27,803 nucleotides of DNA from Oscillospiraceae bacterium (GCA_009783605.1 WRDE01000001.1:1-27803), one strand, 5' to 3'. Positions 1,102 through 25,879 are shown, numbered from the stretch's first letter. Notes: generated from the sequence alone by a model not told the origin. Numbers and translations: made by a program.

Positions 1102-1129
1102 TTTCTAAGCTCTAAAATCTAAGATCTAA
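1102..1129 (-). repeat. 7-bp tandem array, 4 units (transcript sense TTAGATC/TTAGATT/TTAGAGC/TTAGAAA)
   Basis: Forward strand tttctaa gctctaa aatctaa gatctaa. The first unit supplies the TAG stop of the ACT gene. Confidence 0.85.
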
Positions 1130-1395
1130 ATCCGGTGCATCGCATTAAAAATATCCTCATGCATACAGTGGATGGTCAACCCCCGCCCGGCGCCGGTTTT
1201 TTCTAATCCGGCGGCAAAATCGGCGAAGGGGAGGTTGCTGGCCGACAGGTCCACCATCATCATCATCACAAACATCTCCTGCAATACCGACTGGGTCACC
1301 TCAAGTACGTTGATATTCTGTTCGGCACAGGCGGTGAATACCGCCGCCAGTATGCCGACAGTATCCCGGCCGATAACGGTGATTACCGCGCGCAT
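1126..1395 (-). CDS. ACT domain protein (UPF0237), 89 aa
   Basis: MRAVITVIGRDTVGILAAV...INVLEVTQSVLQEMFVMMMMVD...HEDIFNAMHRI. Start moved from 1611 to 1395 (SD GGGGG upstream). Confidence 0.93.
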   Translation of the reverse strand: MRAVITVIGRDTVGILAAVFTACAEQNINVLEVTQSVLQEMFVMMMMVDLSASNLPFADFAAGLEKTGAGRGLTIHCMHEDIFNAMHRI

Positions 1396-1547
1396 AGCTG
1401 TTCCCCCGTTCATTTTTATTTTTGCCAGTATATCATAAATTAGGCAAAAAGAAAAGAAAATATTGCGGGTACACCACGACGTACACAGGTCAAACGCGAC
1501 ACAATTCACGATTTGTATGCGAATTTTTGTATTTCGGCGAAAATCTG

Positions 1548-1576
1548 TTGCCTTTTCAACAGATTTATGGTATTCT
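1548..1576 (+). promoter_or_regulatory. Sigma-A promoter of the MarR gene, overlapped by inverted repeats
   Basis: TTGCCT-N17-TATTCT with an extended -10 TG. Inverted repeat AAATCTGTTG-N6-CAACAGATTT at 1541-1566. Confidence 0.7.
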
Positions 1577-1643
1577 GTTGAAAACGTGAATACGGTTATC
1601 CCAAAACGCACGAAAATACTTCATAAAACAGGAAGGGGAAAAA

Positions 1644-2111
1644 ATGGAAATTGAAAATGCCGCGTCAAATACATTGAACGAGGAAATCAATGAGGTGTTG
1701 GTCAACACTTTCCATCTCATTTTAAAAACCGAATTGAAGATGATTAAGGAATGTGAAAAAAATGATCTTTCGATGCGGGAGATCCATCTGTTGGAGATTG
1801 TGGGAAAAGCCGAAAACGGGATCGGCGTCTCTCAGATTGCCAATATATTTCAGATAACCGTGGCCAGCGTCACCATGATGGTTAAAAAAATGGAACAGCG
1901 GCAGCTGATAGAAAGGCAAAAAGATTCCACCGACGGGAGAAGCGTGCTGCTGCGGCTGACCGAGGCGGGGAAAAAAATCGACGCGTATCATTACCAGTTT
2001 CATCAGACGATGGTAGAACACATCACCGGGCGGCTGACGGATTTTGAGAAACAGGTTTTTTTGGGCAGTATTAAGAAGCTGAACGAATTTTTTAATATGG
2101 AGTTATTATAA
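1644..2111 (+). CDS. MarR-family transcriptional regulator (FabT-like)
   Basis: INEVLVNTFHLILKTE...LSMREIHLLEIVG...VASVTMMVKKMEQRQLIERQKDSTDGRSVLLRLTEAGK...HYQFHQTMV. This resembles the FabT-type MarR winged helix. Confidence 0.9.
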   Translation: MEIENAASNTLNEEINEVLVNTFHLILKTELKMIKECEKNDLSMREIHLLEIVGKAENGIGVSQIANIFQITVASVTMMVKKMEQRQLIERQKDSTDGRSVLLRLTEAGKKIDAYHYQFHQTMVEHITGRLTDFEKQVFLGSIKKLNEFFNMELL

Positions 2112-2152
2112 ACAAAAAAGTTGAAAAACGGCGGTTTTTCAACTTTTTTGTT
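2111..2152. terminator. Bidirectional intrinsic terminator
   Basis: AACAAAAAAGTTGAAAAAC-GGCG-GTTTTTCAACTTTTTTGTT, a 19-bp perfect stem between convergent genes. Confidence 0.85.
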
Positions 2153-2170
2153 CAGGAGGATTCTTAGAAA

Positions 2171-2692
2171 TCAGTCTTTTTTTACGAAATGAATAATGCC
2201 GGTACCCGCGGTTGCGACTAAGTAGAGGATGGATCCGAGCCCGATAGTGGCTCCGAATTCAAACACGTTTGGCTGGCCGGCCGGGAAATCGGGAAATACA
2301 AACCCGATGATCAGCGCCAGCGCCATAAACCCGAACGCCAGGATCGCCAGCCATTTTGTTTGCATTTTATGTACGATTGTTTCATCCTTCTTAATCAGCG
2401 CCACAACCCCCGCCGCGAACAGCGCCGCAGCGCACGCGACCGACAGGATAACCAGGATGACGCTCAGGGTGGACCAGAAGATGGTTTTGTTGCTGAAATC
2501 GGTAACGAATTTGTAAAACGAGATACCCATATCCCCGCCCCTGAGCGCCGCGACACCTTGACGGGTTGCCTCCTGCGCCTCCGCCGGGATGCCCGCCGCA
2601 AAATTCAGGCAGAGCGTGGAATAGCTGAAGAACAGCGCGGCAAACGAAACGATGCCTCCGAATAGGCTGACCAAACTTTTTTTCATAACCAT
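2171..2692 (-). CDS. Hypothetical integral membrane protein (~4 TM)
   Basis: Four hydrophobic segments. SD AAGGAG before the ATG. Has its own promoter and shares the terminator. Confidence 0.8.
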   Translation of the reverse strand: MVMKKSLVSLFGGIVSFAALFFSYSTLCLNFAAGIPAEAQEATRQGVAALRGGDMGISFYKFVTDFSNKTIFWSTLSVILVILSVACAAALFAAGVVALIKKDETIVHKMQTKWLAILAFGFMALALIIGFVFPDFPAGQPNVFEFGATIGLGSILYLVATAGTGIIHFVKKD

Positions 2693-2709
2693 TTCTCCTT
2701 TTTGATATT

Positions 2710-2730
2710 ATTTAGTTAAGCTAACTAAAT
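2710..2730. promoter_or_regulatory. Palindromic candidate repressor operator
   Basis: ATTTAGTTA-AGC-TAACTAAAT, just downstream of the predicted TSS of the 2171-2692 gene. Confidence 0.6.
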
Positions 2731-2738
2731 TGTTTGCC

Positions 2739-2767
2739 ATGATACACCTTCTGTTTTTATTTGTCAA
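2739..2767 (-). promoter_or_regulatory. Sigma-A promoter of the membrane protein gene
   Basis: Minus strand TTGACA-N17-TATCAT. Confidence 0.75.
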
Positions 2768-2857
2768 CTGTTTTGCGGAAAATAAATGTGAAGTTATTTT
2801 AAAATTTAAATTTTCCGTAAATTCTCAGTTTTTTACCCGATTTTATTAAAATAATAC

Positions 2858-2886
2858 TTGCAATCGCCTTATAACAGTGATATACT
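2858..2886 (+). promoter_or_regulatory. rpsB-tsf promoter
   Basis: TTGCAA-N17-TATACT with TG at the extended -10 position. Confidence 0.75.
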
Positions 2887-2891
2887 ATTTC

Positions 2892-3035
2892 GGCTGTCGG
2901 TTTCCCGGCAGCCGAAATTCTCACGCGGAGTATTGTCTTTCGGCTGGGTTCCTGCCTTTTATCGAAAAAGCAGGTGGCGCGGAAGGCGCCGCGGACGAAT
3001 GTAAAAAAAACCAAAAAACAGGAGGAAAACAATCT
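2892..3035 (+). ncRNA. Probable rpsB 5' leader (S2 autoregulatory leader)
   Basis: ~140-nt structured leader between the promoter and the rpsB ATG, with hairpins GGCTG/CAGCC and CCTGC/GCAGG and a GC-rich CACGCGG...CCGCG segment. Structured rpsB leaders are established in bacteria. No covariance model was run. Confidence 0.5.
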
Positions 3036-3767
3036 ATGGCAGTCGTATCCATGAAACAGCTGCTGGAGGCCGGTGTTCATTTCGGACACCAGACCCGGCG
3101 CTGGAACCCGAAGATGGCGACCTACATCTTCACCGAACGCAACGGCATCTACATCATCGATCTTCAAAAAACCGTCCGCAAGTTGGAGGAGGCCTACATG
3201 TTCGTGCGCGATCTCGCGCTGGACGGCCAGACGGTGCTGTTTGTCGGCACCAAAAAGCAGGCTCAGGATTCTATCCGCGAGGAAGCCGAACGGGCCGGCG
3301 GTCATTTTGTCAACGCCCGCTGGTTAGGCGGTATGCTGACCAACTTCAACACCATCCGCGGCCGGATCAAACGGTTGGCCCAGCTGCGGGCGATGGAAGC
3401 CGACGGCACCTTTGACCTGCTGCCGAAAAAAGAGGTCATCAAGCTCAATCTGCAGATCGAGCGGTTAGAAAAATTCTTGGGCGGCATCAAGCAGATGAAC
3501 AAGCTGCCGGGCGCGCTGTTTGTGGTCGACCCGCGCCGGGAGAAGATCGCCGTCGCCGAAGCGCGCAAGCTCGGCATCCCGGTGGTCGCCATCGTCGATA
3601 CCAACTGCGACCCCGACGAGGTGGATTATGTGATCCCCGGCAACGATGACGCCATCCGCGCGGTCAAGCTGATCGCGTCGGTCATGGCCAACGCCATCCT
3701 CGAAGGCAATCAGGGCAGCGACATCGCCCCGACGGCGGAGGACGAAGGGGAAGAAGGGTCTGAATAA
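3036..3767 (+). CDS. rpsB: 30S ribosomal protein S2
   Basis: [27 protein letters not shown]...[10 protein letters not shown]...DTNCDPD...[13 protein letters not shown]. Start corrected to 3036 (SD GGAGG). Confidence 0.99.
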
Positions 3768-3772
3768 CATTA

Positions 3773-3851
3773 TAGTGACGAGTGACGAGATGCAGACCAG
3801 TCATTGGCAGCAGACAAACCAATACTAACCACTCATCACTCGCCACTTCTA
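3773..3851 (+). repeat. Paired 7-bp arrays in inverted orientation (AGTGACG x2; ACTAACC/ACTCATC/ACTCGCC/ACTTCTA)
   Basis: GTGACGAGTGACGAG pairs at 13/15 positions with CTCATCACTCGCCAC, forming a hairpin in the rpsB-tsf spacer. Confidence 0.7.
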
Positions 3852-3903
3852 ACGGCGTCCCCGCGTATAAATTTTTAATCATAACTAAAAGGAGATTACT
3901 ATA

Positions 3904-4827
3904 ATGGCATTTACCGCGAAGGATGTACAGGCGCTGCGCGAGAGAACCGGCGCCGGTATGATGGATTGTAAAAAAGCGCTGACCGAGACCGACGGCGATA
4001 TGGAGAAAGCGGTGGATTTCCTCCGCGAAAAGGGATTGGCTGCCCAGGCGAAAAAGGCCGGCCGGATCGCCGCCGAAGGCGTCGTATTTGCCACCGTCGA
4101 TACGGCGGCAAAAGTCGGCGCGGTAGTCGAAGTCAACGCCGAAACCGATTTTGTGTCGAAAAACCCCGATTTTATCGCTTTTGTGGAATCGGTGGCCGCC
4201 GCCGTCATCAAATATAACCCGGCGGATGTGGAAGCGCTGCTGCCGCTGCCCTGCGCCGGCTACGGCTCGGTGGAGGAAGCGCTGCGGGACAAGATTTTTA
4301 TCATCGGCGAAAACATGAAGATCCGCCGGTTTATCCGGTATGAGGGCGACTGCGCCGCTTATGTCCACGGCGGCGGCCGGATCGGCGTGCTGGTAAAATT
4401 CAGCGCCGACGCCACAACCGCCGGCGGCGCCGCGCTGGCCGAATGCGGCAAGGACGTGGCGATGCAGATCGCGGCCCTCAACCCGCTCTATTTAGACGAG
4501 GCGGCGGTCCCGGCGGAGGATATCGCCCGGGAGCGCGAGGTGCTGATCGCCCAGATCAAAAACGACCCGAAACTGGCCGACAAGCCCGCCAATATCATCG
4601 ATAAGATGGTGGACGGCCGGATCGGCAAGTTCTATGAGAACAACTGCCTGCTCAAACAGGCCTTCGTCAAAAACGGCGATATCACCGTCGCCCAATATGT
4701 CGCCGATTGCGCCAAAGCGGCCGGCGGAGCTTTCTCGATCGCGTGCTTCACCCGGTTTGAGAAAGGCGAAGGACTGGCAAAGCGGGAGGAAAATTTCGCG
4801 GATGAAGTCGCGAATATGATTAAGTAA
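3904..4827 (+). CDS. tsf: Elongation factor Ts
   Basis: MAFTAKDVQALRERTGAGMMDCKKAL...KKAGRIAAEG...EVNAETDFV...AMQIAA...CLLKQAFVK...RFEKGEG. Confidence 0.99.
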   Translation: MAFTAKDVQALRERTGAGMMDCKKALTETDGDMEKAVDFLREKGLAAQAKKAGRIAAEGVVFATVDTAAKVGAVVEVNAETDFVSKNPDFIAFVESVAAAVIKYNPADVEALLPLPCAGYGSVEEALRDKIFIIGENMKIRRFIRYEGDCAAYVHGGGRIGVLVKFSADATTAGGAALAECGKDVAMQIAALNPLYLDEAAVPAEDIAREREVLIAQIKNDPKLADKPANIIDKMVDGRIGKFYENNCLLKQAFVKNGDITVAQYVADCAKAAGGAFSIACFTRFEKGEGLAKREENFADEVANMIK

Positions 4828-4841
4828 TCAACACATGCACA

Positions 4842-4879
4842 AGAAATCATTGCCGCGCCTTGGCGCGGCAATGATTTCT
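4842..4879 (+). terminator. Long hairpin after tsf (probable terminator or stabiliser; weak U tract)
   Basis: AGAAATCATTGCCGCGCC-TT-GGCGCGGCAATGATTTCT, an 18-bp perfect stem. Confidence 0.6.
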
Positions 4880-5024
4880 ATCTGCACCGACGCATATAGT
4901 CGGAATTTAACACATGGGATACTTCAATGAGAGTACCACGTAAAAAAATAGCGTGGAATTGGATTATATTGGAAATTCCGGGTTTATTTTATTTATGTCG
5001 AAAAAGTGAAAAAGCCATACCGGC

Positions 5025-5054
5025 TTGACAAGGCACTTAAAAAAATGTAATACT
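5025..5054 (+). promoter_or_regulatory. Candidate sigma-A promoter of the dockerin-MltG gene
   Basis: Perfect TTGACA followed by TGTAATACT at ~17-18 bp. The -10 register is uncertain. Confidence 0.55.
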
Positions 5055-5108
5055 TTTAGTTATGATATGATTGATCTCATAAAGACATCATAAGGCAGGA
5101 GTATTGTT

Positions 5109-6128
5109 ATGCTGCGAAAACGCATGTATTCTACGGTCGGGTTATTGTTGTCGCTGTGCCTGTTCACCGGTATCTTTCAGCCGGTACAGGCGGCGTTTCA
5201 ATGGGGTGATGTGGATGGTGACGGCAAAATCGGCGTGGGAGACGCCCGGCTGATCCTGCAATATCTGGTTGGAAAGACCGCGCTTACGCCGTCGCAGCTG
5301 GCTGTTGCGGATGTGGACGGCGACGAAAATGTGACGATAGCCGACGCGCGGAAAGTATTACAGTATTTAGTAGATAAAGTTTTTTCAATAAACCCGCCGT
5401 TACCCCTGACTGTCCGGGTCACTATTCCGGAGGGAAAGACGTTGGATGAGATCGCGGCGCTGTTAGAGAAAAAGCGGGTTTGTCCGGCAACGGATTTTTA
5501 CGCGGCGGTGCAAAACGGAGATTTTTTCGACTATGATTTTATTCGGGATCTTCCGGAATCGCCGGGGCGCGGTCACCGGCTGGAGGGATATCTGTTTCCC
5601 GATACATATGAATTTTATACCGACAGCTCCGCTGCGTCGGCTATCCGCCGGATGTTGAATAATTTTACCAACAGGATCGTCCCGCTGCGCCCGATTCTGG
5701 CCGAAAGTGACCGCACAATTCATGATATCGTGCTGATGGCTTCTATCATCGAGCGGGAGGTATACAGCGCGGCCGATATGAAAAGGGTCAGCCGGGTGCT
5801 GCATAACCGTTTGCATAATCCGGCGGAGTTTCCCCGTCTGCAATGTGATTCCACCGGCGAATATGTGGACAAAGTCAACGCCGCGGGGTATATCACATTA
5901 AAAGATGAGGATTATAATACTTATCAGCGCCGCGGAATGCCGGCCGGGCCGATCAGTAATCCGGGATTAAACGCGCTGACAGCGGCGGTTTATCCCTCGG
6001 AAGAGGCATCCGTGATATCCTGCTATTTTTTCGCCTCCGATATCACCACCGGCATCACGTATTTTTCAAAAACCTATGCCGAGCATGTCGAGATATGCGA
6101 GCGGTATAAAATCGGGGTCCACCAGTAA
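5109..6128 (+). CDS. mltG: Secreted dockerin-MltG (YceG-like endolytic transglycosylase) fusion
   Basis: Signal peptide aa 1-~28. Two Ca-binding dockerin repeats (GDVDGDGKIGVGDARLILQYLVG, ADVDGDENVTIADARKVLQYLV). MltG motifs VTIPEG, LEGYLFPDTYEF, MASIIERE (catalytic Glu), LQCDST, YNTY, GMPAGPISNPG, YFFA. Confidence 0.9.
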   Translation: MLRKRMYSTVGLLLSLCLFTGIFQPVQAAFQWGDVDGDGKIGVGDARLILQYLVGKTALTPSQLAVADVDGDENVTIADARKVLQYLVDKVFSINPPLPLTVRVTIPEGKTLDEIAALLEKKRVCPATDFYAAVQNGDFFDYDFIRDLPESPGRGHRLEGYLFPDTYEFYTDSSAASAIRRMLNNFTNRIVPLRPILAESDRTIHDIVLMASIIEREVYSAADMKRVSRVLHNRLHNPAEFPRLQCDSTGEYVDKVNAAGYITLKDEDYNTYQRRGMPAGPISNPGLNALTAAVYPSEEASVISCYFFASDITTGITYFSKTYAEHVEICERYKIGVHQ

Positions 6129-6357
6129 TCAACACATACACAAGAAATCATTGCCGCGCCAAGGCGCGGCAATGATTTCTTGTCTGCGCCGACGCATATA
6201 GTCGGAGTTTAACACATGGGATACTTCAATGAGAGCAGCGCCGTGCAAAAAATTATTGCGTGGAAGCAGACTATATTTGGATATTTCCGGTTTTTTTATG
6301 TCGAAAAAATGAAAAAAGCTGCACTTGCTTGACAAAATACCCAAAAAGTTGTAATGT
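6124..6357 (+). repeat. Direct repeat copy 2 (hairpin plus cvpA promoter)
   Basis: See copy 1. This copy has a 21-bp perfect stem at 6140-6183, TGTCGAA at 6299-6305 and TTGACA at 6329-6334. Confidence 0.92.
6329..6357 (+). promoter_or_regulatory. Candidate sigma-A promoter of the cvpA-pgsA-clp genes
   Basis: TTGACA-N17-TAATGT, followed by an AT-rich leader and SD AAAGGAG. Confidence 0.55.
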
Positions 6358-6408
6358 TATTTAGATATAAAATAAAATATCCATATACAGTGAAAGGAGC
6401 GGCGGAAA

Positions 6409-7143
6409 ATGGCATATCTGCTGGACTTTGCGGCCATACTCATCATTGCCCTGTCGATATTTCTGGGGGTAAAAAAGGGGCTGGTACGCGCCTTGATTTC
6501 GATGGCGGGATTCCTGCTGGCGCTGACGCTGGCCGGATTTCTCTGCAAGCCGATGGCCGGCTGGATCTACGGCGGCTCGATGCAGGAGAAGGTGATTGCC
6601 GCCGCCGAAACCGAGATACAGAAGAGCGGCACCGACAAGGTGCTGGAGAATATCGACCGGATCGCGTCGGAGCTGCCGGTTCTCGGAGGGGCTTCGGGGA
6701 AAGACTGGGTCGACCATGACGGCCGCCGGGCGGACCTGAATCAGGCGTTAGCCAAGGAGTCGGCCCCCACCGCTCGCCGGGCCGCCGAGATAGCCGAGGA
6801 AAAGGTGCTGGGGCCGATCGCGGTGACATTGCTGACCATTTTATGCTTTATCATCCTCTTTATCCTGCTGAACGTGGCGGCCTGGCTGTTCGGCATTTTT
6901 GCCGGGAAAATTTTTAACCTGCCGGTTTTGAAAACCTTCAACAAAGCGGGCGGCGGCATATTCGGCGCGGTCCGCGGTCTTGTGCTGGCTGTCGGATTCG
7001 CCGTGATCGCCAGTGTTGTTGCTTCCGGCGGCAGCGAATGGCTGAGTACCGCGGATCTGAATGATTCATTATTCTGCAAGACGATCCTCGACTTGTTTGC
7101 CAGAAACGGGTTGTTGAGCCAGTTGATGTCCCTGTTACCCTGA
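6409..7143 (+). CDS. cvpA: CvpA (colicin V production) family membrane protein
   Basis: LDFAAILIIALSIFLGVKKGLVRAL...NLPVLKTFNKAGGGIFGAVRG. This is the CvpA pattern with an inserted soluble loop. Confidence 0.85.
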   Translation: MAYLLDFAAILIIALSIFLGVKKGLVRALISMAGFLLALTLAGFLCKPMAGWIYGGSMQEKVIAAAETEIQKSGTDKVLENIDRIASELPVLGGASGKDWVDHDGRRADLNQALAKESAPTARRAAEIAEEKVLGPIAVTLLTILCFIILFILLNVAAWLFGIFAGKIFNLPVLKTFNKAGGGIFGAVRGLVLAVGFAVIASVVASGGSEWLSTADLNDSLFCKTILDLFARNGLLSQLMSLLP

Positions 7144-7229
7144 TAACCAACACATCCATAAACGCTCCGCGTTTGTCTGCGTTGCTACACAACTTTAGGA
7201 AACCAATTATTTATTATTTAGGAGTCGTT

Positions 7230-7796
7230 ATGTTGGTAGACGTAAAATTGACAGTACCCAATCTGCTGTCGTTGTTGCGTATCCTGCTGATACCCGTTTT
7301 CGTGGTGTTGTATCTGAGCAGCAGCGCGGAGAACTCCTGCCCGGCTTACTGGGCGTTCGGCGTGTTGTTTCTCTCCGGTGTGACGGATTTTCTCGACGGG
7401 ATTATCGCCAGAAAATTTAATCAGATCACCGATTTCGGCAAGTTACTCGACCCCATTGCTGATAAACTGACCCAGGTGGCGGTGGTGGTCGCTCTTGCCG
7501 TCCGCCATAACCAGTTGTTTATCCTGGCCGCCATCTGTGTTTTGAAGGAATTGATCCAGGGTATCGGCGGATTGCTGCTGCTGCGCAAAGGCGACGAGGT
7601 ACGGGGAGCGCGCTGGTTCGGTAAAGCGGCGACCTTTGTGTTTTATGGCGTGATGATCGCGATCGTGCTGATCCCGGACGAATATATGTCGGCGCCGCTG
7701 TTATACGGGCTGATCGCGCTGGTAGGCGCCGCGATGCTGGTCGCGTTTATCGGGTATATGAAGACGTTTATGACGGTGAGAAAAGATTTGAAATAA
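7230..7796 (+). CDS. pgsA: CDP-alcohol phosphatidyltransferase (PgsA-like)
   Basis: TVPNLLSLLRIL...SGVTDFLDGIIARKFNQITDFGKLLDPIADKL signature. Start corrected to ATG 7230 after SD AGGAG. Confidence 0.88.
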   Translation: MLVDVKLTVPNLLSLLRILLIPVFVVLYLSSSAENSCPAYWAFGVLFLSGVTDFLDGIIARKFNQITDFGKLLDPIADKLTQVAVVVALAVRHNQLFILAAICVLKELIQGIGGLLLLRKGDEVRGARWFGKAATFVFYGVMIAIVLIPDEYMSAPLLYGLIALVGAAMLVAFIGYMKTFMTVRKDLK

Positions 7797-7855
7797 TTTA
7801 GGGCTTAGGGGTTAAAAAGGGGTTTGATGCGTAATTTCTATTCCCTAACCCCTAT
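7797..7855 (+). repeat. Paired 7-bp arrays in inverted orientation (TTTAGGG/CTTAGGG/GTTAAAA; TCCCTAA/CCCCTAT)
   Basis: TAGGGCTTAGGG (7799-7810) is complementary at 11/12 positions to CCCTAACCCCTA (7843-7854). Confidence 0.7.
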
Positions 7856-7870
7856 AGTAGTGGTGACTGT

Positions 7871-10174: not shown

Positions 10175-10181
10175 GCAATTC

Positions 10182-10214
10182 ACAGCGGCTCCCTCCCGGA
10201 GCCGCTGTTTTTTT
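10182..10214 (+). terminator. Intrinsic terminator after clp
   Basis: ACAGCGGCTCC-N5-GGAGCCGCTGT followed by a T tract. Confidence 0.9.
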
Positions 10215-10215
10215 C

Positions 10216-10244
10216 TTGCCTTTTCTCCGCAGATGCGGTATACT
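10216..10244 (+). promoter_or_regulatory. Sigma-A promoter of the DUF975 / sulfatase-like genes
   Basis: TTGCCT-N17-TATACT. Confidence 0.7.
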
Positions 10245-10281
10245 GCAATGGATACATTTTATTTAAAAAGGGGGGACGGCG

Positions 10282-11004: not shown

Positions 11005-11033
11005 CAAAAACGAATGTAAAGGAATGAGTATAC

Positions 11034-18012: not shown

Positions 18013-18015
18013 GGT

Positions 18016-18828
18016 CTATTCCCCCTTCTTAACACCTAATCGCATCCGGTAACAAAAATCCACCGGCAGTGTCTTGTCGCCGAAATAGGTATCCACCGCC
18101 GCCCGGAAAGCAGCCAATTCTGCTTCGATCAGCGCCGGATTCCTTTTTAGAATAACCTGTGTGCCGCCCTGGGACAATGCGAACCGATAATACCGCTCCG
18201 CATCGCAGGGTTCGGTGTTGGCGAAAACGATCTCTCGCACATAGTAGAAATAACCGGACTTGCGGATATTTTCCAGATGCCCCGTTTTGGGATATCCGAT
18301 AAACCCGTCCCGATATTCCGGCACGTTCGCTTCGATGTCGTCAACATACTCATCCAATTTCTGATATGCCGCGTCTATGATGGCACCGCATACCGGCGGC
18401 CAGTCGCAGTCATACGCCGCGAAAACCCCGCCGGGTTTTAAAATCCGGTCTATCTCCCGCAGGGTCGACACCGGTTCCATCCAGTGGAAGGATTGGGAAC
18501 AGGTGACGATATCGGCGATCCCGTCCGCCAGCCCGGTATTGTCGGAAAAAGCGGAAACAAATACGATATTTTCCGCGCCCGCCGCGTTTGCCGTTGCCCG
18601 CGCCAGCATATCCTCATTCGGCTCAACACCGATAATAGTATCCGCCGCGTCCCGCCATACCAGTGTGGACAGCCCAGTGCCGCACCCCATGTCCACCACC
18701 GTCCGCGGGCGGTACCCAAGATAGCGGGTCAGCACCTCCACCACATAGGGCGGACAGGCCGGACGGGTGTTGTCATACAGCCCCGCGAAGCCATTAAACC
18801 GGTCGATGTTTTTATGCGCGTCAGTCAT
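18016..18828 (-). CDS. Class I SAM-dependent methyltransferase
   Basis: YDNTRPACP, VVDMGCGTGLST, IGVEPN, CSQSFHW, RILKPGGVF. Start corrected to 18828 (SD CAGGAG). Confidence 0.92.
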   Translation of the reverse strand: MTDAHKNIDRFNGFAGLYDNTRPACPPYVVEVLTRYLGYRPRTVVDMGCGTGLSTLVWRDAADTIIGVEPNEDMLARATANAAGAENIVFVSAFSDNTGLADGIADIVTCSQSFHWMEPVSTLREIDRILKPGGVFAAYDCDWPPVCGAIIDAAYQKLDEYVDDIEANVPEYRDGFIGYPKTGHLENIRKSGYFYYVREIVFANTEPCDAERYYRFALSQGGTQVILKRNPALIEAELAAFRAAVDTYFGDKTLPVDFCYRMRLGVKKGE

Positions 18829-20233
18829 TCTCCTGTTCCTCCCTCGCTTTTTTCGTGATCTCCCGGATAAACCCGCCCTTCGCCGCGGTATATCCGTCCC
18901 GGTCATGCTCGAATTTCTGCCGCAGCTCCCGCTTCAGCGCGGCATACGCGGCGGCGGCTTCGGGATGGGCGATCAGATAATCCCGGAAGTATACTTCATC
19001 ATGGTCGCCGGGATACCGCACATGGATATGATACACCCGCTCGGCGAAACCGGTCGATGTGTAGCCTTTTATAAACATCAGATGGGGCGGCGGCGATGGC
19101 ATAGACGGCGGGTTCAGGCAGATGTATTCAGGCGCGGGCAGCGCGGCGATCAATTGCGATAGATCGGCATCTTCGCTGATCTCCAGCAGGATATCCACCG
19201 TCGGTTTGGCCGTCAGCCCCGGCACAGAGGTGCTGCCATAATGAGTGGTCCTTACGATATGTTTCGCACCTATCAGCCGTTCCAGATTCGCTTTTTCCTC
19301 CGCAAACCACTGCGGCCAGGCGGGGTTATAGTTGCTTAAAATAATGGGAAACAACCGGGCGCGCTGCTCATCGGTGAGTTGATCCGGCGGCTTGGGTTCT
19401 CTCACCATCCGCAAATACGCCCGCATCCCGTCCTCTTCCTCCTGCCGGTATGTAAAACCTAAATGCTCCGCCACCGATACCGCCAGTGTATGGAATAGAT
19501 CGCACATCGTATACACCGCCGCCCAGACGTCGGCGTAGTCGCTGCCACACCAGGCGGCGGCATACTGCGCGTATAATTCCGGAGGTAAATACTTTTTGTA
19601 ATATTTGCCCATCTTGCCAGAGGATACCGAAAAATCGGTCTGGGTGCCGATATGCCAGTCAATCATATCGTGCAGCTCCGCACGCACTACACCGTTCAGC
19701 ATCTGCATCACATACGGCAGCTCGTCCCGGGCGATACCTTTGGCGACATTGTTCAGGCACCACCAGAAATTGTTGCAGCAGGAATAATAGAACAGCGGCG
19801 AGGGCGGTTTGACCCAAAAATCTTTGTCGGTCGGCGGCGGATAAACCGGAACAATCCCATCCTTGTCAAGCAATGTGACGGTTAAACAGTCATAGCGCTC
19901 TAAATTTTCGACGGTTAGCGGAACCAAAGACAGGTCGATCCGATTCCCGTCCTCAAAAAGCATCAGATAACCGAAATGTCCGTCGGCATTGTCCGGCCAG
20001 CGCATCGTTTCCGGCATCTGCAACATAAGCCTATTGCCGAAAACATCAATCCACCGGTGGTCTTTCGTAAAGGAATCGACATCGGTCACCATGTACGCAA
20101 TATCGTAATCCTGATAGTGGTCCTTCGGCGCGGCGGGATTCGCGCGCGAACCGTTCATAAGCACCGCCCGGATCCGCTCATCCGCCCGGGCAACACCCAA
20201 AATCAACTCCATCATTTCCTGTTCAGTGCGCAT
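18821..20233 (-). CDS. Aminoglycoside 6-adenylyltransferase (AadK/ANT(6))-like domain fused to a GrpB/UPF0157 domain
   Basis: aa 1-~280: MRTEQEMMELIL...RIRAVLMNGSRAN...QDYDI...LMLFEDGNRIDL...NNFWW...VAKGIARDELPY...GKMGKY. aa ~283-465: LFPIILSNYNPAWP...HYGSTSVPGLTAKPTVDIL...YHIHV...FRDYLIAHP...YTAAKG. Confidence 0.9.
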   Translation of the reverse strand: MRTEQEMMELILGVARADERIRAVLMNGSRANPAAPKDHYQDYDIAYMVTDVDSFTKDHRWIDVFGNRLMLQMPETMRWPDNADGHFGYLMLFEDGNRIDLSLVPLTVENLERYDCLTVTLLDKDGIVPVYPPPTDKDFWVKPPSPLFYYSCCNNFWWCLNNVAKGIARDELPYVMQMLNGVVRAELHDMIDWHIGTQTDFSVSSGKMGKYYKKYLPPELYAQYAAAWCGSDYADVWAAVYTMCDLFHTLAVSVAEHLGFTYRQEEEDGMRAYLRMVREPKPPDQLTDEQRARLFPIILSNYNPAWPQWFAEEKANLERLIGAKHIVRTTHYGSTSVPGLTAKPTVDILLEISEDADLSQLIAALPAPEYICLNPPSMPSPPPHLMFIKGYTSTGFAERVYHIHVRYPGDHDEVYFRDYLIAHPEAAAAYAALKRELRQKFEHDRDGYTAAKGGFIREITKKAREEQEND

Positions 20234-20245
20234 ACGGATCCAACC

Positions 20246-20280
20246 TTTCTAATCACTATCCACTAATCACTAATCACTAC
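20246..20280 (-). repeat. 7-bp tandem array, 5 units (transcript sense GTAGTGA/TTAGTGA/TTAGTGG/ATAGTGA/TTAGAAA)
   Basis: Forward strand tttctaa tcactat ccactaa tcactaa tcactac. The first unit supplies the aroK TAG stop. Confidence 0.88.
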
Positions 20281-20780
20281 CATAAAAGCTCCTTAATAAT
20301 CTCCCGCGCCACCGCGTCCGGCGACTGCTCGCCGTTGACGATATAATCCGAGATGCTTTTATACTGCGGATAACGGGTGATGAAAATATTATGCATCGCC
20401 TTACGCTTGTCCGGCTGGGTCAGCAGCGGCCGGGAGCTGTCACCCTGAAGCCGCCGCCAGGCGGTTTCCTCGTCGATATTCAACCAGACCAATACACTGT
20501 TTTCCGCCAGCGCCCGGCGGTTGCGCCGGTCTAACAGCGCGCCGCCGCCGGCGGCGATAACGAACCCCTGCTTTTCGCCCAGCATAGCGCAGACCGCGTT
20601 CTCCCGGCGCCGGAATTCTTTTTCGCCGTGGCGCTCAAAGATCTCGTTTACCGTCAGCCCGGCCTGCCGTTCGATCATCTCGTCCATATCCGCAAACGGA
20701 CGTCCGCCCAGCACCGCCAGCCGTTTGCCGACAGTGGTTTTTCCGCATCCCATGAAACCATATAATACAATATTTTTCAT
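20277..20780 (-). CDS. aroK: Shikimate kinase
   Basis: IVLYGFMGCGKTTVG, IFERHGEKEFRRRE, AAGGGA, RPLL. Start corrected to 20780 (SD GGAGG). Confidence 0.95.
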   Translation of the reverse strand: MKNIVLYGFMGCGKTTVGKRLAVLGGRPFADMDEMIERQAGLTVNEIFERHGEKEFRRRENAVCAMLGEKQGFVIAAGGGALLDRRNRRALAENSVLVWLNIDEETAWRRLQGDSSRPLLTQPDKRKAMHNIFITRYPQYKSISDYIVNGEQSPDAVAREIIKELLW

Positions 20781-20910
20781 TAGCGCGCATCCTCCGGGAA
20801 TGGTATTTTTTATGGAAATAATTTTAGCATTTTTATGAGTATTACGCAAGTAGAAAATTAGAGATTTGTGATATCGTCATATTGTGTCGAGACTTGTCAA
20901 CCTCTCCCTC

Positions 20911-20939
20911 TTGACGAACCGGATAAAAAGGGGTAAAAT
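20911..20939 (+). promoter_or_regulatory. Sigma-A promoter of DUF1292 (probably also drives the 6S RNA)
   Basis: TTGACG-N17-TAAAAT. Confidence 0.75.
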
Positions 20940-20976
20940 ATAATCAAGATATAAAAAAGAAGGGATCGGGATAACT

Positions 20977-21276
20977 ATGGCGGAGGAATACGGGCCGGAT
21001 CTGGTCACATTGGTCGACGACGAGGGCAATCAATATGAATTTGAGGTGATCGACGCCATCGAAACCGACGACGGCCGGTATATCGCCATCCTGCCGTACC
21101 ACGAAAACCCGGAGGAGTCCCTCGACGAGGACGGGGAATTAGTCATTCTCAAAGTCGTGGACGAGAACGGCGAAGAGGTGCTCGAAACCATCGAAGAAGA
21201 CGACGAATTCGACGAGATAGCAGAGCTGTTTGAAGAACGGCTAAAAGAACTGTATGAGATTGATCTGGTGGAGTAA
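20977..21276 (+). CDS. DUF1292 domain protein
   Basis: Acidic protein: DLVTLVDDEGNQYEFEVID...YIAILP...ETIEEDDEFDEIAELFEERL. Confidence 0.93.
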   Translation: MAEEYGPDLVTLVDDEGNQYEFEVIDAIETDDGRYIAILPYHENPEESLDEDGELVILKVVDENGEEVLETIEEDDEFDEIAELFEERLKELYEIDLVE

Positions 21277-21280
21277 ACAC

Positions 21281-21306
21281 AATTGAAAATTGAGAATTGA
21301 AAATTG
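21281..21306 (+). repeat. 7-bp tandem array (AATTGAA/AATTGAG/AATTGAA/AATTG)
   Basis: Starts 4 nt after the DUF1292 stop. TGA at 21284, 21291 and 21298. Confidence 0.85.
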
Positions 21307-21316
21307 GTTTTCATCC

Positions 21317-21605
21317 AGATACGGCGGCGCACCAAAAAACGCGGAATTTCCATTCTGATCAGCGCTTTATTGACTTTCACCCAGACGCGGCGGCGTCAAT
21401 AACAAACGCCTGGTATTGGCTTATACACGCCGGAACAGGCAGCCAGGCGTTTGTGAGTGGGATTTTAGACGCGGCGGCGCACCAAAAAACGCGAAACATC
21501 CATTTTAATTAGCGCTTTATTGACTTTCACCCAGACGCGGCGGCGTCAATAACAAACGCCCGGTATTGGCTTATACACGCCGGAACGGGCAGCCAGGCGT
21601 TTGTG
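21317..21605 (+). repeat. 150-bp tandem duplication of a palindrome-rich unit (21317-21455 and 21467-21605)
   Basis: The 95-nt blocks 21361-21455 and 21511-21605 differ at only 2 positions. Internal inverted repeats TTATTGAC/GTCAATAA and ACAAACGCCTGG/CCAGGCGTTTGT. Confidence 0.92.
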
Positions 21606-21613
21606 CGGCTCGG

Positions 21614-21814
21614 TTTCCTGCGCGGTTCGCGGACCGCTGTCCAATAACCCTACTACACTTGGAATTCGGGAGCTTGGCTCCGCTGTGGGACTGCAGACCT
21701 CCCGCGGGAAGCATGACTTTCTGCGGACGAAGGGAGCGAGAAAACAGCGGGCAGGCACCCACCCTGCTTACGTTAGTAGCAGGTTATCGAGGACAGTTTA
21801 CGGCCGGGCGGGAA
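21614..21814 (+). ncRNA. ssrS: Probable 6S RNA
   Basis: ~200-nt rod. Closing helices TTCCTGCGCGG/CCGGGCGGGAA, CTGTCC/GGACAG and ATAACC/GGTTAT. Central bubble with GGGAGCT on the 5' side and GGCACCCACC plus a CCTGC/GCAGG hairpin on the 3' side. Apical helix CCGCTGT/ACAGCGG. These motifs are recalled from Firmicutes 6S RNAs; Rfam was not run. Confidence 0.75.
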
Positions 21815-21960
21815 TTTTATTTTAACAGCAAAAGCGCTGCGACGTACCAAAAACGCCGCAGCGTTTTTGAGTGGGGTTCGGGCCGGGCGGGAATTTTATT
21901 TTAACAGCAAAAGCGCTGCGACGCACCAAAAAACGCCGCAGCGTTTTTGAGTGGGGTTCG
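21802..21960 (+). repeat. 79/80-bp tandem duplication (6S 3' end plus terminator-like hairpin)
   Basis: 21802-21880 and 21881-21960 differ by one substitution and one A indel. Each contains AAAAACGC-CGCA-GCGTTTTT. Confidence 0.92.
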
Positions 21961-22174
21961 GGGCTCGTAATTGGGGCTTGTGCGGCTAAAGCCGCGACTG
22001 CGCCTGTTCGCTGATTGTTGATTCAGCAGACAATGGGGACAGCGCTGTGGCAAATGCGGCGGTCGCGCAGGTCGCGACGATTTGTCTGCCAAGCACTTCG
22101 CCTGTGCGTTGTTCGCAGTTGAGTAGAATCAACGAACAGGCGATGTCGCGCTTTAGCGCACGAGCCCCGAACTC
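21953..22174. repeat. Inverted doublet of REP-like palindromes (REPIN/MITE-like)
   Basis: Arm 21973-22016 (GGGGCTTGTGCGGCTAAAGCCGCGACTGCGCCTGTTCGCTGATT) matches the reverse complement of 22127-22168 (GGGGCTCGTGCGCTAAAGCGCGACATCGCCTGTTCGTTGATT). Confidence 0.75.
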
Positions 22175-22980
22175 TCCAGAAGCGGCGCGTAGCTCATCAC
22201 CGCGTGATTTTCAATCAGGTATTCATCCGCTGTTTCGATTCCGCCGGCGTCAAACTGTTTGCGGAACAGCACATTGTGCCGGGTATATCCGCCCCACCAT
22301 TCGGGTTTCATGATATGCTCCCGCTCATATACCCGATAGGTAACCTCCGGCGGGGCGTCCGACTGCCATGTGCCGGTCAGGTTTTTTTCTCCCACCTCTA
22401 TATGCAGCCGGAAGGTCTGTTGGGTGTCGTTGCGGATCATCAGGTCGCCGTAGTTGTAAAAACAGGTGGCGCCGCTGCCGAATGGCTGGGTGCGGCTGGC
22501 GTCGGGGAACACGTCATATCCGTGGCGGTGGCGTTCGGTCACGGTCAGCGGGGTGTGGGCAGTCATCCAGAAAATCAGGTTGGACAGCTGGCACAGCCCG
22601 CCGCCGGTGGCCGCGTAAAACCCGCCGTTCCGCAGCACCATCCCTTTCAGATATCCCTTCCGTTTGGCGGGTCTGCCGATGGCTTTCCAATAGGAAAAGG
22701 TTTCGCCCGGCGCCAGCGTGATGCCGTCTAACTTTTTAACCGCGATTTTGAGATTGACGATCTTGTTATATTGCAGGATCATCTCCACATCCTTCAGCTT
22801 CCGCAGCAGCGGCGTGGCATGGGTAAACACGGTATATGCCAGCGGCTGCGGGGATTGCCGGGCGAACCGCAGTCCGCCGAATAGCCAGAGCCGGTACCTT
22901 TTCAGCGTATAATACTGTTTCCCTGCCCAGAGACGGAGAGGGGAACGTTTTTTTGGTTCGGGAAGAAAATCTTTCATCAT
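22153..22980 (-). CDS. VanW-family protein
   Basis: NKIVNLKIAVKKLDGITLAPGETFSYW...KGYLKG...GGGLCQLSNLIFW...ERHRH...GATCFYNYGDL. Confidence 0.88.
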   Translation of the reverse strand: MMKDFLPEPKKRSPLRLWAGKQYYTLKRYRLWLFGGLRFARQSPQPLAYTVFTHATPLLRKLKDVEMILQYNKIVNLKIAVKKLDGITLAPGETFSYWKAIGRPAKRKGYLKGMVLRNGGFYAATGGGLCQLSNLIFWMTAHTPLTVTERHRHGYDVFPDASRTQPFGSGATCFYNYGDLMIRNDTQQTFRLHIEVGEKNLTGTWQSDAPPEVTYRVYEREHIMKPEWWGGYTRHNVLFRKQFDAGGIETADEYLIENHAVMSYAPLLESSGLVR

Positions 22981-23117
22981 AGCTATACTGTATCATACTT
23001 CATTCCGGAATACAAATTACAATTTTGTTACCTTTGCAAAAAATATTCAAATATTATGACCCGCTGATGTGTTATACTTATGTATTGTTGTATGCATCCC
23101 GACAGGAGAGATACATA

Positions 23118-23648
23118 ATGGATAATCAAACATTGGAAACCCTGATCCGGCGGATCTGTCAGGAGGATAACGGCGCTTTTGAGGAGCTGTACCGGCTGAT
23201 GAAGGGCGGCGTCTTTTCATTTGCCTATTCCCTCTGCGGCAACTGGCACACCGCCGAGGATGTATTGCAGGATACCTTTCTGCGGATCCGGCAGTATGCC
23301 GGCACCTATCAGCCGGGCACCAACCCGAAAGCCTGGATCCTCACCATCGCCAAAAATCTGGCGCTGAACACGCTGCGGAGCGGGAAACGGTTTGCCGATG
23401 ACAATCCCGGAGAGGACATCTCTGCGGTATATGAGCAGGATCAGACCGAAATGATCGAAAACCGGGTGCTGCTGGACCAGCTGCTGAAAACCCTGAACCA
23501 GACCGAACGCCAGATTGTCGCGCTCCACGCGGTATCCGACGTCAAACATGCGGATATCGCCAAAATGCTGGGAAAACCGTATGGAACGGTGCTGTGGACT
23601 TACTCAAACGCGGTGAAGAAATTGAAGAAAGAGCTTAACAATTCATAA
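23118..23648 (+). CDS. ECF-subfamily RNA polymerase sigma factor
   Basis: AFEELY...AEDVLQDTFLRI...PKAWILTIAKNLALN...ERQIVALH...DIAKMLGKPYGTVLW. Start corrected to 23118 (SD CAGGAG). Confidence 0.93.
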   Translation: MDNQTLETLIRRICQEDNGAFEELYRLMKGGVFSFAYSLCGNWHTAEDVLQDTFLRIRQYAGTYQPGTNPKAWILTIAKNLALNTLRSGKRFADDNPGEDISAVYEQDQTEMIENRVLLDQLLKTLNQTERQIVALHAVSDVKHADIAKMLGKPYGTVLWTYSNAVKKLKKELNNS

Positions 23649-23663
23649 TGCATAATGCATAAT
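23643..23663 (+). repeat. 7-bp tandem array (TCATAAT/GCATAAT/GCATAAT)
   Basis: The first unit supplies the ECF gene's TAA (23646). Further TAA at 23653 and 23660. Confidence 0.8.
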
Positions 23664-23794
23664 TAGGGGCATCTGTTTTTTGCGATACAATCAGTCGGTG
23701 CCAATTTTTTAGCCCGTTCCGGTGTTATATTGACAGAAGCGCTTTTGAAACTTTTGAAAACACCCTTTTTTACAGAAAGGAAGGAGCTATCCTC

Positions 23795-25879
23795 ATGAAC
23801 AAACCAATAAAAACCCATCTAAAAGCCCTCTTTAACAAAGCCGCGCCGGCCCAGCCGCCTGAGTTACAAACTGCAACCGAACATTCAGCATTCAGCACTC
23901 AGCATTCCGCATTCAAAAAACGTCGTTCCATCATTTACCATGTCGCCGCCGTTGCCGCCGCTTTTGCGCTTATCGCGGCGGGATTGGGTTATTTCCCGAT
24001 TCTGCGGCAGCACGATGAAGAGGATCCCGGTCCTTCCCTTGGCGCGATGAATGTGGCCGCCGTGGGGAATACCGCTACGCTGAAAAAACTGCTGAAAGGG
24101 TCGAACAATTATTATGGCGGCAATAGGTTTTTTTCCTTGGGTGGGGGCGACGAGATGGCCGAAGACGCTGAGATGCCGGCATCCGCACCGCCTACCGGTC
24201 AAAATAGCAACGAAGCTAAAGGAAGTTCCTCTGCCAAAGATGACCACTCCACCACCAATCTTCAGGTGGAAGGGGTGGACGAGGCCGATATTATCAAGAC
24301 CGACGGGGAATTCGTTTACTACCTCGCCAACAACAGCCTCTATATCGCGGATATCCGCGATCCGCGGGATATGACGATCGTCACCAAAATGAAATATGAC
24401 AACTGGGACAACCCCAACAACAGTCGCGCCGAAACGCCGATTGAGATGTATGTGGACGGCGATATCCTGACCGTGATCTTTACTGTGTATGAATGGGACA
24501 ACAGTGAAAGCGACAAAAGACAATACTATTATTATGATAACAGCTATTCCACCCGCGTCCGCGTTTTTGACATGGCCGACCGGGCGGATATCCGCCAGAC
24601 CCGGGATTTTTCCTTCGACGGCTATTACAGCACCTCCCGCAAGGTGGGGGATCTGCTGTATGTGATCGGGTATAAAGGGACCTATTACTATCCGTATGAA
24701 ACCGACGTTTTCGGCAACGAGATATATCCCCCGATCGCATCGGTGCTGCCCAAATGCAGGGCCGAAAACGGCGGCTGGGAAGCGGTCGCGTTAGACACCA
24801 TCCGGTATTTCACCGAAGTGGAGGACAACAACATTTTCCAATACATTATCGGGATGGACGTCAAAAATCCGGATGCCGAGGTCAAAACCAACATCTTTTT
24901 GAACAACGGCAACACCGTCTACGCCAACGCCGAAAATATCTATATCGCCGGGGTCAAATACAGCTATGACAGCGAAGAGTGGTGGCAAAGCAGCTGCGAT
25001 ACCATCGTCTCGAAATTCACCCTCAACGGCGGCGAAGTCCTCTTCGACGCGATGGGGACGGTCCCGGGCAACGTGCTCAACCAGTTCTCGATGGACGCGT
25101 ATACCGGCAACTTCCGGATCGCCACCACCGTCGACAGATGGTCGCCCGACGGGGAAAATCACTCTGCCAACAACCTGTATATCCTCGGCCCGGATATGAA
25201 AATCATCGGCAAGCTGACCGGGCTGGCCCCGGGCGAGCGGATCTATTCGGTCCGGTTTATCGGACCGAAGGTGTATATGGTCACCTTCCGGACGGTGGAT
25301 CCGCTGTTCGTCATCGACGCGGAGGATCCCGCCAATCCGCAGGTGCTGGGCGAGCTGAAGATCCCGGGCTACAGCTCTTATCTGCACCCCTATGACGAGA
25401 CACACATCATCGGTTTCGGGATGGATGCCGAGGAAGTGGATAAAGATCTCGCACTGAGACAGGGCATAAAAATCGCCATGTTCGATGTGTCGGATTTCCA
25501 CAACCCAAAAGAACTGTTCAACACCGCCATCGGCAAGCGGGGTTCGTATTCCGAGCTGTTGGACAACCACAAAGCGCTGCTGTTCTCGAAAGAAAAGAAT
25601 ATCTTCGCTTTCCCCGCGGTGGTTTGCAGGGAAGAATACAGCGAGGGGTGGCAGGGTTTCCTGTATTTCTCGATTGATATGGAAGAGGGTTTTGTCGAAA
25701 AAGGCAGAATCTCCCATGCGGGAGCCGCATATAATACCTATTGGGACTATTATGGATCGGAGATTGCCGTCACCCGCGGTATCTATGCGGGAGATGTGCT
25801 GTATACCTTCTCCGGCGCAAAAATTATGGCGCATTCGTTGGTGGATATGGCGTTTATCGGGGAGCTTAAAATCAATTGA
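23795..25879 (+). CDS. Membrane-anchored beta-propeller domain protein (putative anti-sigma partner)
   Basis: One TM segment (~aa 47-68). HSTTNLQVEGVDEADIIKTDGEFVY, LNQFSMDAYTGNFRIATT, GERIYSVRFIG..YMVTFRTVDPLFVID, GELKIPGYSSYLHPYDETHIIGFG. The anti-sigma role is inferred from its position after the ECF gene. Confidence 0.88.
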   Translation: MNKPIKTHLKALFNKAAPAQPPELQTATEHSAFSTQHSAFKKRRSIIYHVAAVAAAFALIAAGLGYFPILRQHDEEDPGPSLGAMNVAAVGNTATLKKLLKGSNNYYGGNRFFSLGGGDEMAEDAEMPASAPPTGQNSNEAKGSSSAKDDHSTTNLQVEGVDEADIIKTDGEFVYYLANNSLYIADIRDPRDMTIVTKMKYDNWDNPNNSRAETPIEMYVDGDILTVIFTVYEWDNSESDKRQYYYYDNSYSTRVRVFDMADRADIRQTRDFSFDGYYSTSRKVGDLLYVIGYKGTYYYPYETDVFGNEIYPPIASVLPKCRAENGGWEAVALDTIRYFTEVEDNNIFQYIIGMDVKNPDAEVKTNIFLNNGNTVYANAENIYIAGVKYSYDSEEWWQSSCDTIVSKFTLNGGEVLFDAMGTVPGNVLNQFSMDAYTGNFRIATTVDRWSPDGENHSANNLYILGPDMKIIGKLTGLAPGERIYSVRFIGPKVYMVTFRTVDPLFVIDAEDPANPQVLGELKIPGYSSYLHPYDETHIIGFGMDAEEVDKDLALRQGIKIAMFDVSDFHNPKELFNTAIGKRGSYSELLDNHKALLFSKEKNIFAFPAVVCREEYSEGWQGFLYFSIDMEEGFVEKGRISHAGAAYNTYWDYYGSEIAVTRGIYAGDVLYTFSGAKIMAHSLVDMAFIGELKIN
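23882..23916 (+). repeat. 7-bp tandem array inside the CDS (CATTCAG x2, CACTCAG, CATTCCG, CATTCAA)
   Basis: Encodes HSAFSTQHSAF near the N-terminus of the beta-propeller protein. Confidence 0.85.

Follow-up and report, generated by a model that had tools for sequence, protein, structure and literature searches.

What are the short tandem arrays of 7-bp units that stand at the ends of genes in an Oscillospiraceae genome, and do they exist for the sake of the stop codons that they contain? The window in which the question arose, the whole stretch of 27,803 nucleotides that was analysed, is contig C1 of GCA_009783605.1 (hereafter G000, with relatives and other genomes labelled Gnnn), a termite-gut metagenome assembly of 2.3 Mb in 372 contigs with 55.5% GC and 77% completeness. 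An earlier interpretation made from this window (the sequence-only reading) described six arrays with stop codons stacked in them and proposed that they are all-frame translational insulators, RNA stability or processing signals, or scars of gene insertion. The six arrays are present at the coordinates that it gave, at or just after stop codons; read in the direction of the upstream gene, each unit contains TAG, TGA or TAA, and the stops cover all three frames in five of the six arrays and only two frames in the array behind rpsB. Our analysis indicates that these heptamer repeats are a genome-wide family of about 500 elements, of which the six arrays of the window are gene-less arms. They are a new and dense member of a known, still unexplained class: no consensus on origin or function has emerged over the decades in which heptamer repeats have been known from cyanobacteria, Xanthomonas and Beggiatoaceae, and G000 adds a case from another phylum and habitat, in which about one fifth of the spacers and about 15% of the gene stops are involved. 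The conserved features of the family are polarity and mirrored arms, and the three-frame stops are best read as a by-product. We give a probability of roughly 55% to the reading that the arrays are gene-less arms of a short tandemly repeated repetitive (STRR) or long simple-sequence repeat family, variable by slippage and linked to a hairpin module that carries a PF05635 gene, with incidental stops.

Genome-wide abundance and position of the arrays

The genome-wide scan for period-7 repeats that the sequence-only reading had called for confirmed and extended its observation. The program TRF found 627 period-7 arrays in G000, versus 123 with period 6 and 89 with period 8, and these arrays fall into 146 unit classes. 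Genes were called with a self-trained codon-usage model, which gave 1848 genes and 86% coding sequence, with robust stop positions and approximate start positions. The non-coding 14% of the genome holds 398 of the 627 arrays, and most of the "coding" arrays overlap the first or last codons of a gene. Altogether 243 of the 1263 spacers (19%) contain arrays, and divergent (promoter) spacers carry them at about the same rate per spacer.

Within spacers, the arrays are anchored to both gene ends. Relative to the expectation for arrays placed at random within their own spacer, array starts -3 to +3 nt from a stop codon are enriched 3.2-fold (59 versus 18.6 expected), in agreement with the placement at stops claimed for the window, and array ends 10-19 nt upstream of a start codon are enriched 3.3-fold (59 versus 17.9). 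The stop codon lies inside an array in 169 of 1579 genes, and an array starts 1-10 nt after the stop in 68 further genes, so that in about 15% of genes the stop falls within an array or lies no more than 10 nt ahead of one. Weak calls of open reading frames (ORFs) are not the source of the stop-in-array class, since its share rises to as much as 13.6% among the best-scoring genes. Many C-terminal codons and stops in this genome are thus supplied by fast-evolving repeat DNA, which annotation should take into account.

In addition, 33 arrays stand at contig ends in G000, and the heptamer repeats are probably among the causes of its fragmented assembly; they are probably apt to break short-read assemblies in general. 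Among contigs of the Logan collection, some stop exactly at array borders, for example at window position 7817.

Mirrored arms and a common polarity

Neighbouring arrays are mostly related by inversion, with 76 inverted pairs versus 12 direct ones, and an inverted partner is found no more than 150 nt away for about 38% of the strong arrays, versus less than 1% in controls. The two arms of a pair are one unit in mirror image, and together they fill the spacer between the stop of the upstream gene and a point shortly ahead of the following ribosome-binding site; in AGTGATT pairs the order of arms is always 5'-[AGTGATT]n-loop-[AATCACT]n-3'. The 70 non-redundant pairs begin at the stop, often with the stop within the 5' arm, and reach to 7-26 nt upstream of the following start codon; their median minimum free energy (MFE) on folding is -34 kcal/mol (z = -8). 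Coupling between units is seen across a spacer (48 inverted versus 1 direct, within 120 nt), whereas across genes the relatedness of units is at the random level. The spacer, and not the gene, is therefore the unit of organisation, and arrays that flank a gene are not the two ends of a cassette.

The polarity applies to single arrays also, at gene starts as well as gene ends. The C-poor strand runs 5' to 3' from the flanking gene toward the centre of the spacer in a ratio of 106:37 at 3' ends and 81:29 at 5' ends, and individual families obey the same rule on this outward strand (AGTGATT 63:8, AATGCTT 22:1, AGTGGCG 19:4 and AATGTAC 10:0). All 11 of 11 strongly polar families carry A-R-T-K on the outward strand, and the unit form common to the families can be written 5'-A-R-T-K-N-N-N-3'.

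Distribution among relatives and other phyla

Among 41 relatives, AGTGATT arrays are confined to G000 and, in small number, G017, a member of the same family but of another genus. A control in which AGTGATT was searched backwards is invalid, because the reversed heptamer is a rotation of itself and so matches the same repeats. In TRF scans of genome samples, G017 is rich in heptamers (86 period-7 arrays versus 10-11 for periods 6 and 8) and fifteen other relatives are not. The unit spectra of G017 and G000 differ; G017 has mirrored pairs and unit-level polarity as in G000.

Outside the family, exact (AGTGATT)3 is found in genomes of more than a dozen phyla among the matches listed, and at the loci among these in other phyla the AGTG form lies on the left and the CACT form on the right in 13 of 13 cases (13:0). 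The genomes concerned show a general heptamer excess (417 period-7 arrays versus 52-82 for periods 6 and 8), and the ARTK core is common to units across families, genera and phyla. As a side observation, at about 25 of 120 (AGTGATT)3 loci (L005-L124) among the matches listed, possibly a biased sample, the names of the metagenome-assembled genomes (MAGs) resemble one termite-gut series; as judged from these names, the termite-gut MAGs with (AGTGATT)3 belong to Bacteroidota, Planctomycetota and Spirochaetota. In three termite-gut runs, contig depth over the AGTGATT array within window positions 19708-20374 is hundreds of times that of its flanks, which indicates that very many other contigs of these communities share this repeat.

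Linkage to a PF05635 gene

G000 has a single gene for a PF05635 protein (23S rRNA intervening-sequence protein, a four-helix bundle), at C128:5123-5437 on the minus strand, and this gene lies in the loop of a heptamer pair: an AGTGGCG array (5006-5037) and a CACTCGC array (5484-5509) flank it with the usual polarity, together with an additional CACT-type array at C128:5075-5105. The codon-usage gene caller missed this gene. The armed element of G000 is thus one, C128:5006-5509, and the window arrays contain no PF05635 ORF. In G017, the PF05635 gene likewise lies between AATGCAG and TTCTGCA arrays.

In the relatives, the flanks of the best-scoring PF05635 copy per genome were examined. In seven relatives, heptamer-poor or unsampled, this copy is without heptamer arms; in G004 it stands between unrelated heptamers, and in G036 a single array lies on one side only. 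In heptamer-rich genomes of other phyla, the gene is present in five of the five checked; of 12 copies examined, 11 have 7-8-nt arrays to either side, and six are clearly mirrored. The gene occurs in 7 of 7 heptamer-rich genomes versus 13 of 39 other relatives (p = 0.0015, for genomes that are non-independent and chosen by their repeats). The armed PF05635 gene is the most useful lead to have come out of the analysis.

Relation to known heptamer repeats

The likening of the window's arrays to STRR-type heptamers in the sequence-only reading is correct, as the arrays show a period-7 excess, are mostly intergenic and dispersed, and form several unit families. Mazel and colleagues reportedly described in 1990 the cyanobacterial STRR sequences as several tandem heptamer families, dispersed in non-coding DNA and of unexplained function. 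To our knowledge, the classical STRR description includes neither a hairpin layout nor a relation to gene ends, and the cyanobacterial units differ from those of G000.

The closest match is provided by the heptamers GGGAATC of Xanthomonas campestris/axonopodis and GGGGA(C/T)T of Nostoc (Rehm et al. 2015, PMC4692102). These are about 90% intergenic, form 70-75 convergent pairs of plus- and minus-strand repeats per genome and, near an ORF, read with the repeat on its 5' side whatever the orientation of the ORF: the repeat lies on the coding strand after stops, including overlap with the stop, and on the non-coding strand before starts (PMC4692102). They are not conserved between related species, and a link to PF05635 is not reported there (PMC4692102). 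G000 shares with them the convergent pairs, the strand rule and the stop-codon overlap. By comparison, Xanthomonas and Nostoc each use one G-rich, quadruplex-forming unit, whereas G000 has more than 100 A/T-rich dialects with an ARTK core and no G-tracts, in a different host, a termite-gut MAG of about 55% GC that is Clostridia-like as judged by its dockerin and its gene content.

A second relative is the TAACTGA repeat of marine Beggiatoaceae, cyanobacteria and Bacteroidetes, which lies in 2-6 copies directly upstream of start codons (MacGregor 2015, PMC4679880). In forward orientation it has stops in all three frames, 13 sets overlap the upstream stop codon, its distribution across phyla is patchy, and translational regulation at start codons has been proposed for it (PMC4679880). 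Its complement AGTTATC conforms to the ARTK form and to the polarity of G000. It differs in being a single unit, with one inverted set among 170. Both the mirrored layout, in Xanthomonas and Nostoc, and the arithmetic of three-frame stops, in TAACTGA, had therefore already been published.

The intervening sequence in the 23S rRNA of Coxiella has an S23p ORF in the loop of a 28-bp stem that is cut by RNase III, and tandem heptameric repeats that differ in copy number from strain to strain (Warrier et al. 2016, PMC4990558). Like the intervening sequences of Coxiella and Leptospira, the armed element combines an inverted-repeat stem, a four-helix-bundle ORF in the loop and tandem heptamers. However, those sequences sit in helix 45 of 23S rRNA, whereas the arrays of G000 lie between protein genes and nearly all lack an ORF; in the window, all arrays lie between or at the ends of protein genes and none in 23S rRNA. 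Cleavage of the G000 arrays by RNase III would follow by analogy. The REP/REPIN palindromes resemble the G000 repeats in being abundant, intergenic and often placed directly after stops, but they are fixed sequences of about 20-40 nt and not tandem heptamers; a REP/REPIN-RAYT system was rejected, as the 77% complete G000 yielded no match to PF01797 (Y1 transposase).

A PF05635 hairpin module as the probable background of the arrays

We propose that the arrays grow and shrink by slippage and that they derive from, or propagate with, a hairpin module carrying PF05635. Transcripts that span both arms would fold into long stems, which RNase III would be expected to cut by analogy with the rRNA intervening sequences; such cuts may separate or stabilise cistrons as a consequence, rather than as part of a designed stop barrier. 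An array that reaches the end of a gene becomes the stop of that gene.

Several observations weigh against this proposal. About 60% of the strong arrays have no detectable partner arm, and since most are unpaired, the hairpin cannot explain everything. The arm lengths of pairs are uncorrelated (r = 0.14), and the complementarity of a true partner arm (0.672) hardly differs from that of same-unit arms taken from other elements (0.656), so that fine-scale pairing is not visibly maintained and base-for-base conservation of the hairpin was rejected. The loops are unique, and the pairs are thus not ordinary copies of a miniature inverted-repeat transposable element. The close abutment of arrays to stop codons is left without a mechanistic explanation by an element model. 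No 7-nt indels appear in the contigs of three termite-gut runs, which as contigs cannot reveal rare variants. Eight sampled PF05635-positive relatives, G004 included, show no heptamer excess in samples of 20-60 kb, which excludes the gene as a sufficient cause; it is linked to the repeats and not sufficient for them. For the PF05635 gene, present here in one copy per genome, the evidence amounts to no more than an association.

A stronger form of the proposal is that an uncharacterised element makes or spreads the arrays, with the mirrored-arm PF05635 gene as its complete form and gene-less forms filling the spacers, and that it moves between phyla that share a habitat. We regard this as a tentative possibility, clearly less probable than the linkage to a module as such. 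The movement between phyla is suggested by the PF05635 protein of G000, which is nearer to a protein of a termite-gut Bacteroidota MAG (52% identity) than to that of its own-family relative G017 (29%), and by AGTGATT arms common to many MAGs with termite-gut-like names, the habitat being judged from these names. If it is true, the PF05635 element would offer a concrete genetic handle on the origin of bacterial heptamer repeats, a question that has stood for decades.

Alternative explanations

The alternative that survives best is a selected RNA structure, in which the intercistronic hairpin is kept as an RNase III site, a stabiliser of 3' ends or a bridge that couples the stop to the next Shine-Dalgarno (SD) site. 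The RNA stability or processing signals suggested by the sequence-only reading are plausible for the roughly 70 paired arrays, whose stems are very stable and have a stop within the 5' arm and an SD directly past the 3' arm, and G000 possesses an RNase III gene. Pairs also prefer spacers that contain at least one gene 3' end (49 tandem and 13 convergent versus 4 divergent). The suggestion does not extend to most arrays, which are unpaired, and the uncorrelated arm lengths, the chance-level complementarity within a unit family and the equal array rate in divergent spacers count against RNA structure as the selected feature. The pairs are not intrinsic (Rho-independent) terminators either, as a T-rich tract follows only 5 of the 70 pairs and the stems are A/T-rich heptamers. 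A point in favour comes from the rpsB-tsf spacer. Synteny at this junction extends to 24 of the 26 family genomes, and in most relatives the spacer holds a GC-rich stem followed by a T-run (loci L126-L150); the G000 spacer (3768-3903) is longer, has no T-run and, alone among these genomes, carries a heptamer hairpin in the position of the GC-rich stem-loop. On balance, selection for the RNA structure appears unlikely as the explanation of the family.

Protein-binding arrays are a rather unlikely second alternative. Here each subunit of a polymerising protein would occupy one 7-nt unit and regulate or organise the neighbouring genes; candidate binders are the PF05635 protein, a protein of ribbon-helix-helix type such as the omega/ParB of plasmids, or a single-strand RNA binder of the kind suggested for TAACTGA. 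The ARTK core is widely shared, PF05635 genes are embedded in arms, and the commonest unit, AATCACT, equals the WATCACW heptad on which omega/ParB dimers polymerise, contiguous 7-bp units of which form direct and inverted runs at parS of plasmid pSM19035 (PMC9499535). However, parS comprises a few promoter-overlapping plasmid sites, as compared with hundreds of chromosomal sites with many other units in G000, and more than 100 unit dialects in one genome are hard to reconcile with a single specific binder. A search for omega-type proteins (PF07764) gave no match at E <= 0.1, whether in G000, in G017 or in three further heptamer-rich genomes, and the omega/ParB parS system was rejected for these genomes. 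Moreover, omega reportedly binds poorly to the arrangement in which the arms here lie.

Plain microsatellites would require neither element nor function: slippage favours 7-nt units, and selection confines the arrays to spacers. According to Mrazek 2007 as relayed in PMC4679880, long simple-sequence repeats in many prokaryotes most often have heptamer units; consistent with this account, copy numbers are small, arms vary independently, and the spectra of G000 and G017 differ. Slippage alone does not account for mirror pairing of the same unit across a spacer, nor for the polarity (13:0 in other phyla), the ARTK core or the armed PF05635 genes, and we consider it improbable as the whole account. 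Two narrower ideas were dropped. A reverse-transcriptase origin finds no consistent association, with one RVT_1 gene in G000 and none in G017, G041 and G042; complementarity of AGTGATT to the 3' tail of 16S rRNA is post hoc and fits one family only.

Stop codons as a probable by-product

The sequence-only reading had proposed that the arrays are all-frame insulators, selected to stop read-through or frameshifted ribosomes in all three frames. Stop-stacking is real as an effect: three-frame stops occur within 33 nt of the stop in 50% of genes with an array, versus 12% of genes without one, and the five of six arrays in the window agree with this. Three frames are nevertheless covered by only half of the gene-end arrays, and the idea further demands that stop-bearing units be commoner at 3' ends than at 5' ends or in shuffled units, which they are not. 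Arrays that contain the stop are enriched for sense stops by construction, since a stop-free array would be read through, and this class was therefore removed for the test. With arrays that define an ORF end excluded, the outward unit bears a stop in 41 of 68 arrays at 3' ends and in 73 of 113 at 5' ends (p = 0.63), and base-shuffled units predict 41.1 at 3' ends.

The AGTG-NNN superfamily, in which the variable triplet sets the stop content of the unit, behaves in the same way. Its stop-bearing units are in excess at 3' ends (84% versus 74% at 5' ends, p = 0.016), but the excess is gone once arrays touching an ORF end are left out (77% versus 74%, p = 0.63). Families without stops (AGTGGCG and AATGTAC, with the ratios given above, and AAATTGC) are equally polar, the outward strand of the AATTCAC family is the stop-free one, and at gene starts the stop-rich strand is the antisense strand. 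The three-frame stops are best read as a by-product of the composition of C-poor 7-nt units together with arrays that reach gene ends; there is no sign that arrays were selected or oriented for them, and all-frame insulation is quite improbable. Insertion scars, by which arrays would mark the junctions of inserted accessory genes, are very improbable: two window arrays do join a core to a likely accessory gene (ACT/131-aa ORF and aroK/ANT(6)-GrpB), but the conserved rpsB-tsf junction bears its heptamer pair without an inserted gene, arrays flanking one gene are not coupled by unit, and arrays occur in 19% of all spacers, so that no scar is needed.

The arrays of the window

The genes ending at the six arrays encode, by Pfam, an ACT domain, ribosomal protein S2, a CDP-alcohol phosphatidyltransferase, a shikimate kinase, a DUF1292 protein and a sigma factor of the extracytoplasmic function (ECF) type. 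As had been described, the own stop of the ACT, aroK and ECF sigma genes forms the first unit of the array; the remaining three arrays begin 0-5 nt past the stop. In two of the six, the ACT and pgsA-like arrays, three-frame stops are present on the antisense strand too.

The ACT array (1102..1129, minus strand) is a single array of four TTAGNNN-type units, and the ACT-domain gene terminates at its first TAG (1126-1128). The array has no partner arm and folds no better than shuffles (z = 0.38). On its downstream side it ends in TTAGAAAGG, followed by the SD of a 131-aa ORF (690-1085). The aroK array (20246..20280, minus strand), a single array of AGTGATT/AGTGGAT units that occupies most of a 43-nt spacer, has the aroK stop as its first TAG (20277-20279) and the same terminus, TTAGAAAGG, which leads into the SD of the ANT(6)-GrpB gene; the shared terminus noted by the sequence-only reading is thus present. 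The Pfam SKI domain ends 2 residues upstream of the aroK stop, which shows that the aroK protein is not truncated.

The other two elements with an inverted arm described earlier pair on folding, with unequal stability. Behind rpsB, the 5' arm (3773..3789, plus strand; AGTGACG x2.3) begins 5 nt past the stop and has stops in two frames only; the 3' arm (3824..3851, plus strand) lies in the rpsB-tsf spacer and consists of CACTNNN-type units complementary to it. The 5' arm pairs with 3826-3847 (MFE -22.1 kcal/mol, z = -2.3). Behind the CDP-alcohol phosphatidyltransferase gene, the 5' arm of TTAGGGC/TTAGGGG units (7797..7817, plus strand) abuts the TAA, and the 3' arm of CCCTAAC type (7835..7855, plus strand) ends 15 nt upstream of the start of a ClpB-like gene; this pair has an MFE of -20.5 kcal/mol and is not clearly better than shuffles (z = -0.8).

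The last two of the six are single arrays on the plus strand. AATTGAA x3.7 (21281..21306) begins 4 nt past the stop of the DUF1292 gene, and AATGCAT x3.4 (23640..23663) contains the stop of the ECF sigma gene as its first TAA (23646-23648). A further array on the plus strand, CATTCAG x4.9 (23882..23915), is the stop-free complement of the AATGCTG family and lies in frame within a beta-propeller anti-sigma-like ORF (23795-25879), 87 nt past its start, in the orientation that the polarity rule gives for gene starts. Evidently, stop-free repeat strands can be carried within coding sequence. This array codes for about 11 residues immediately N-terminal to a predicted membrane helix.

Besides the heptamers, the window contains a 6S RNA by Rfam (51.5 bits; 21612-21818) amid tandem duplications of 79 and 150 nt (21322-21962), which are a repeat family distinct from the heptamers. 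Two domain combinations were also identified by Pfam, a dockerin joined to a YceG/MltG domain (5109-6128) and, in the gene following the aroK array, a streptomycin adenylyltransferase domain joined to GrpB (18821-20233).

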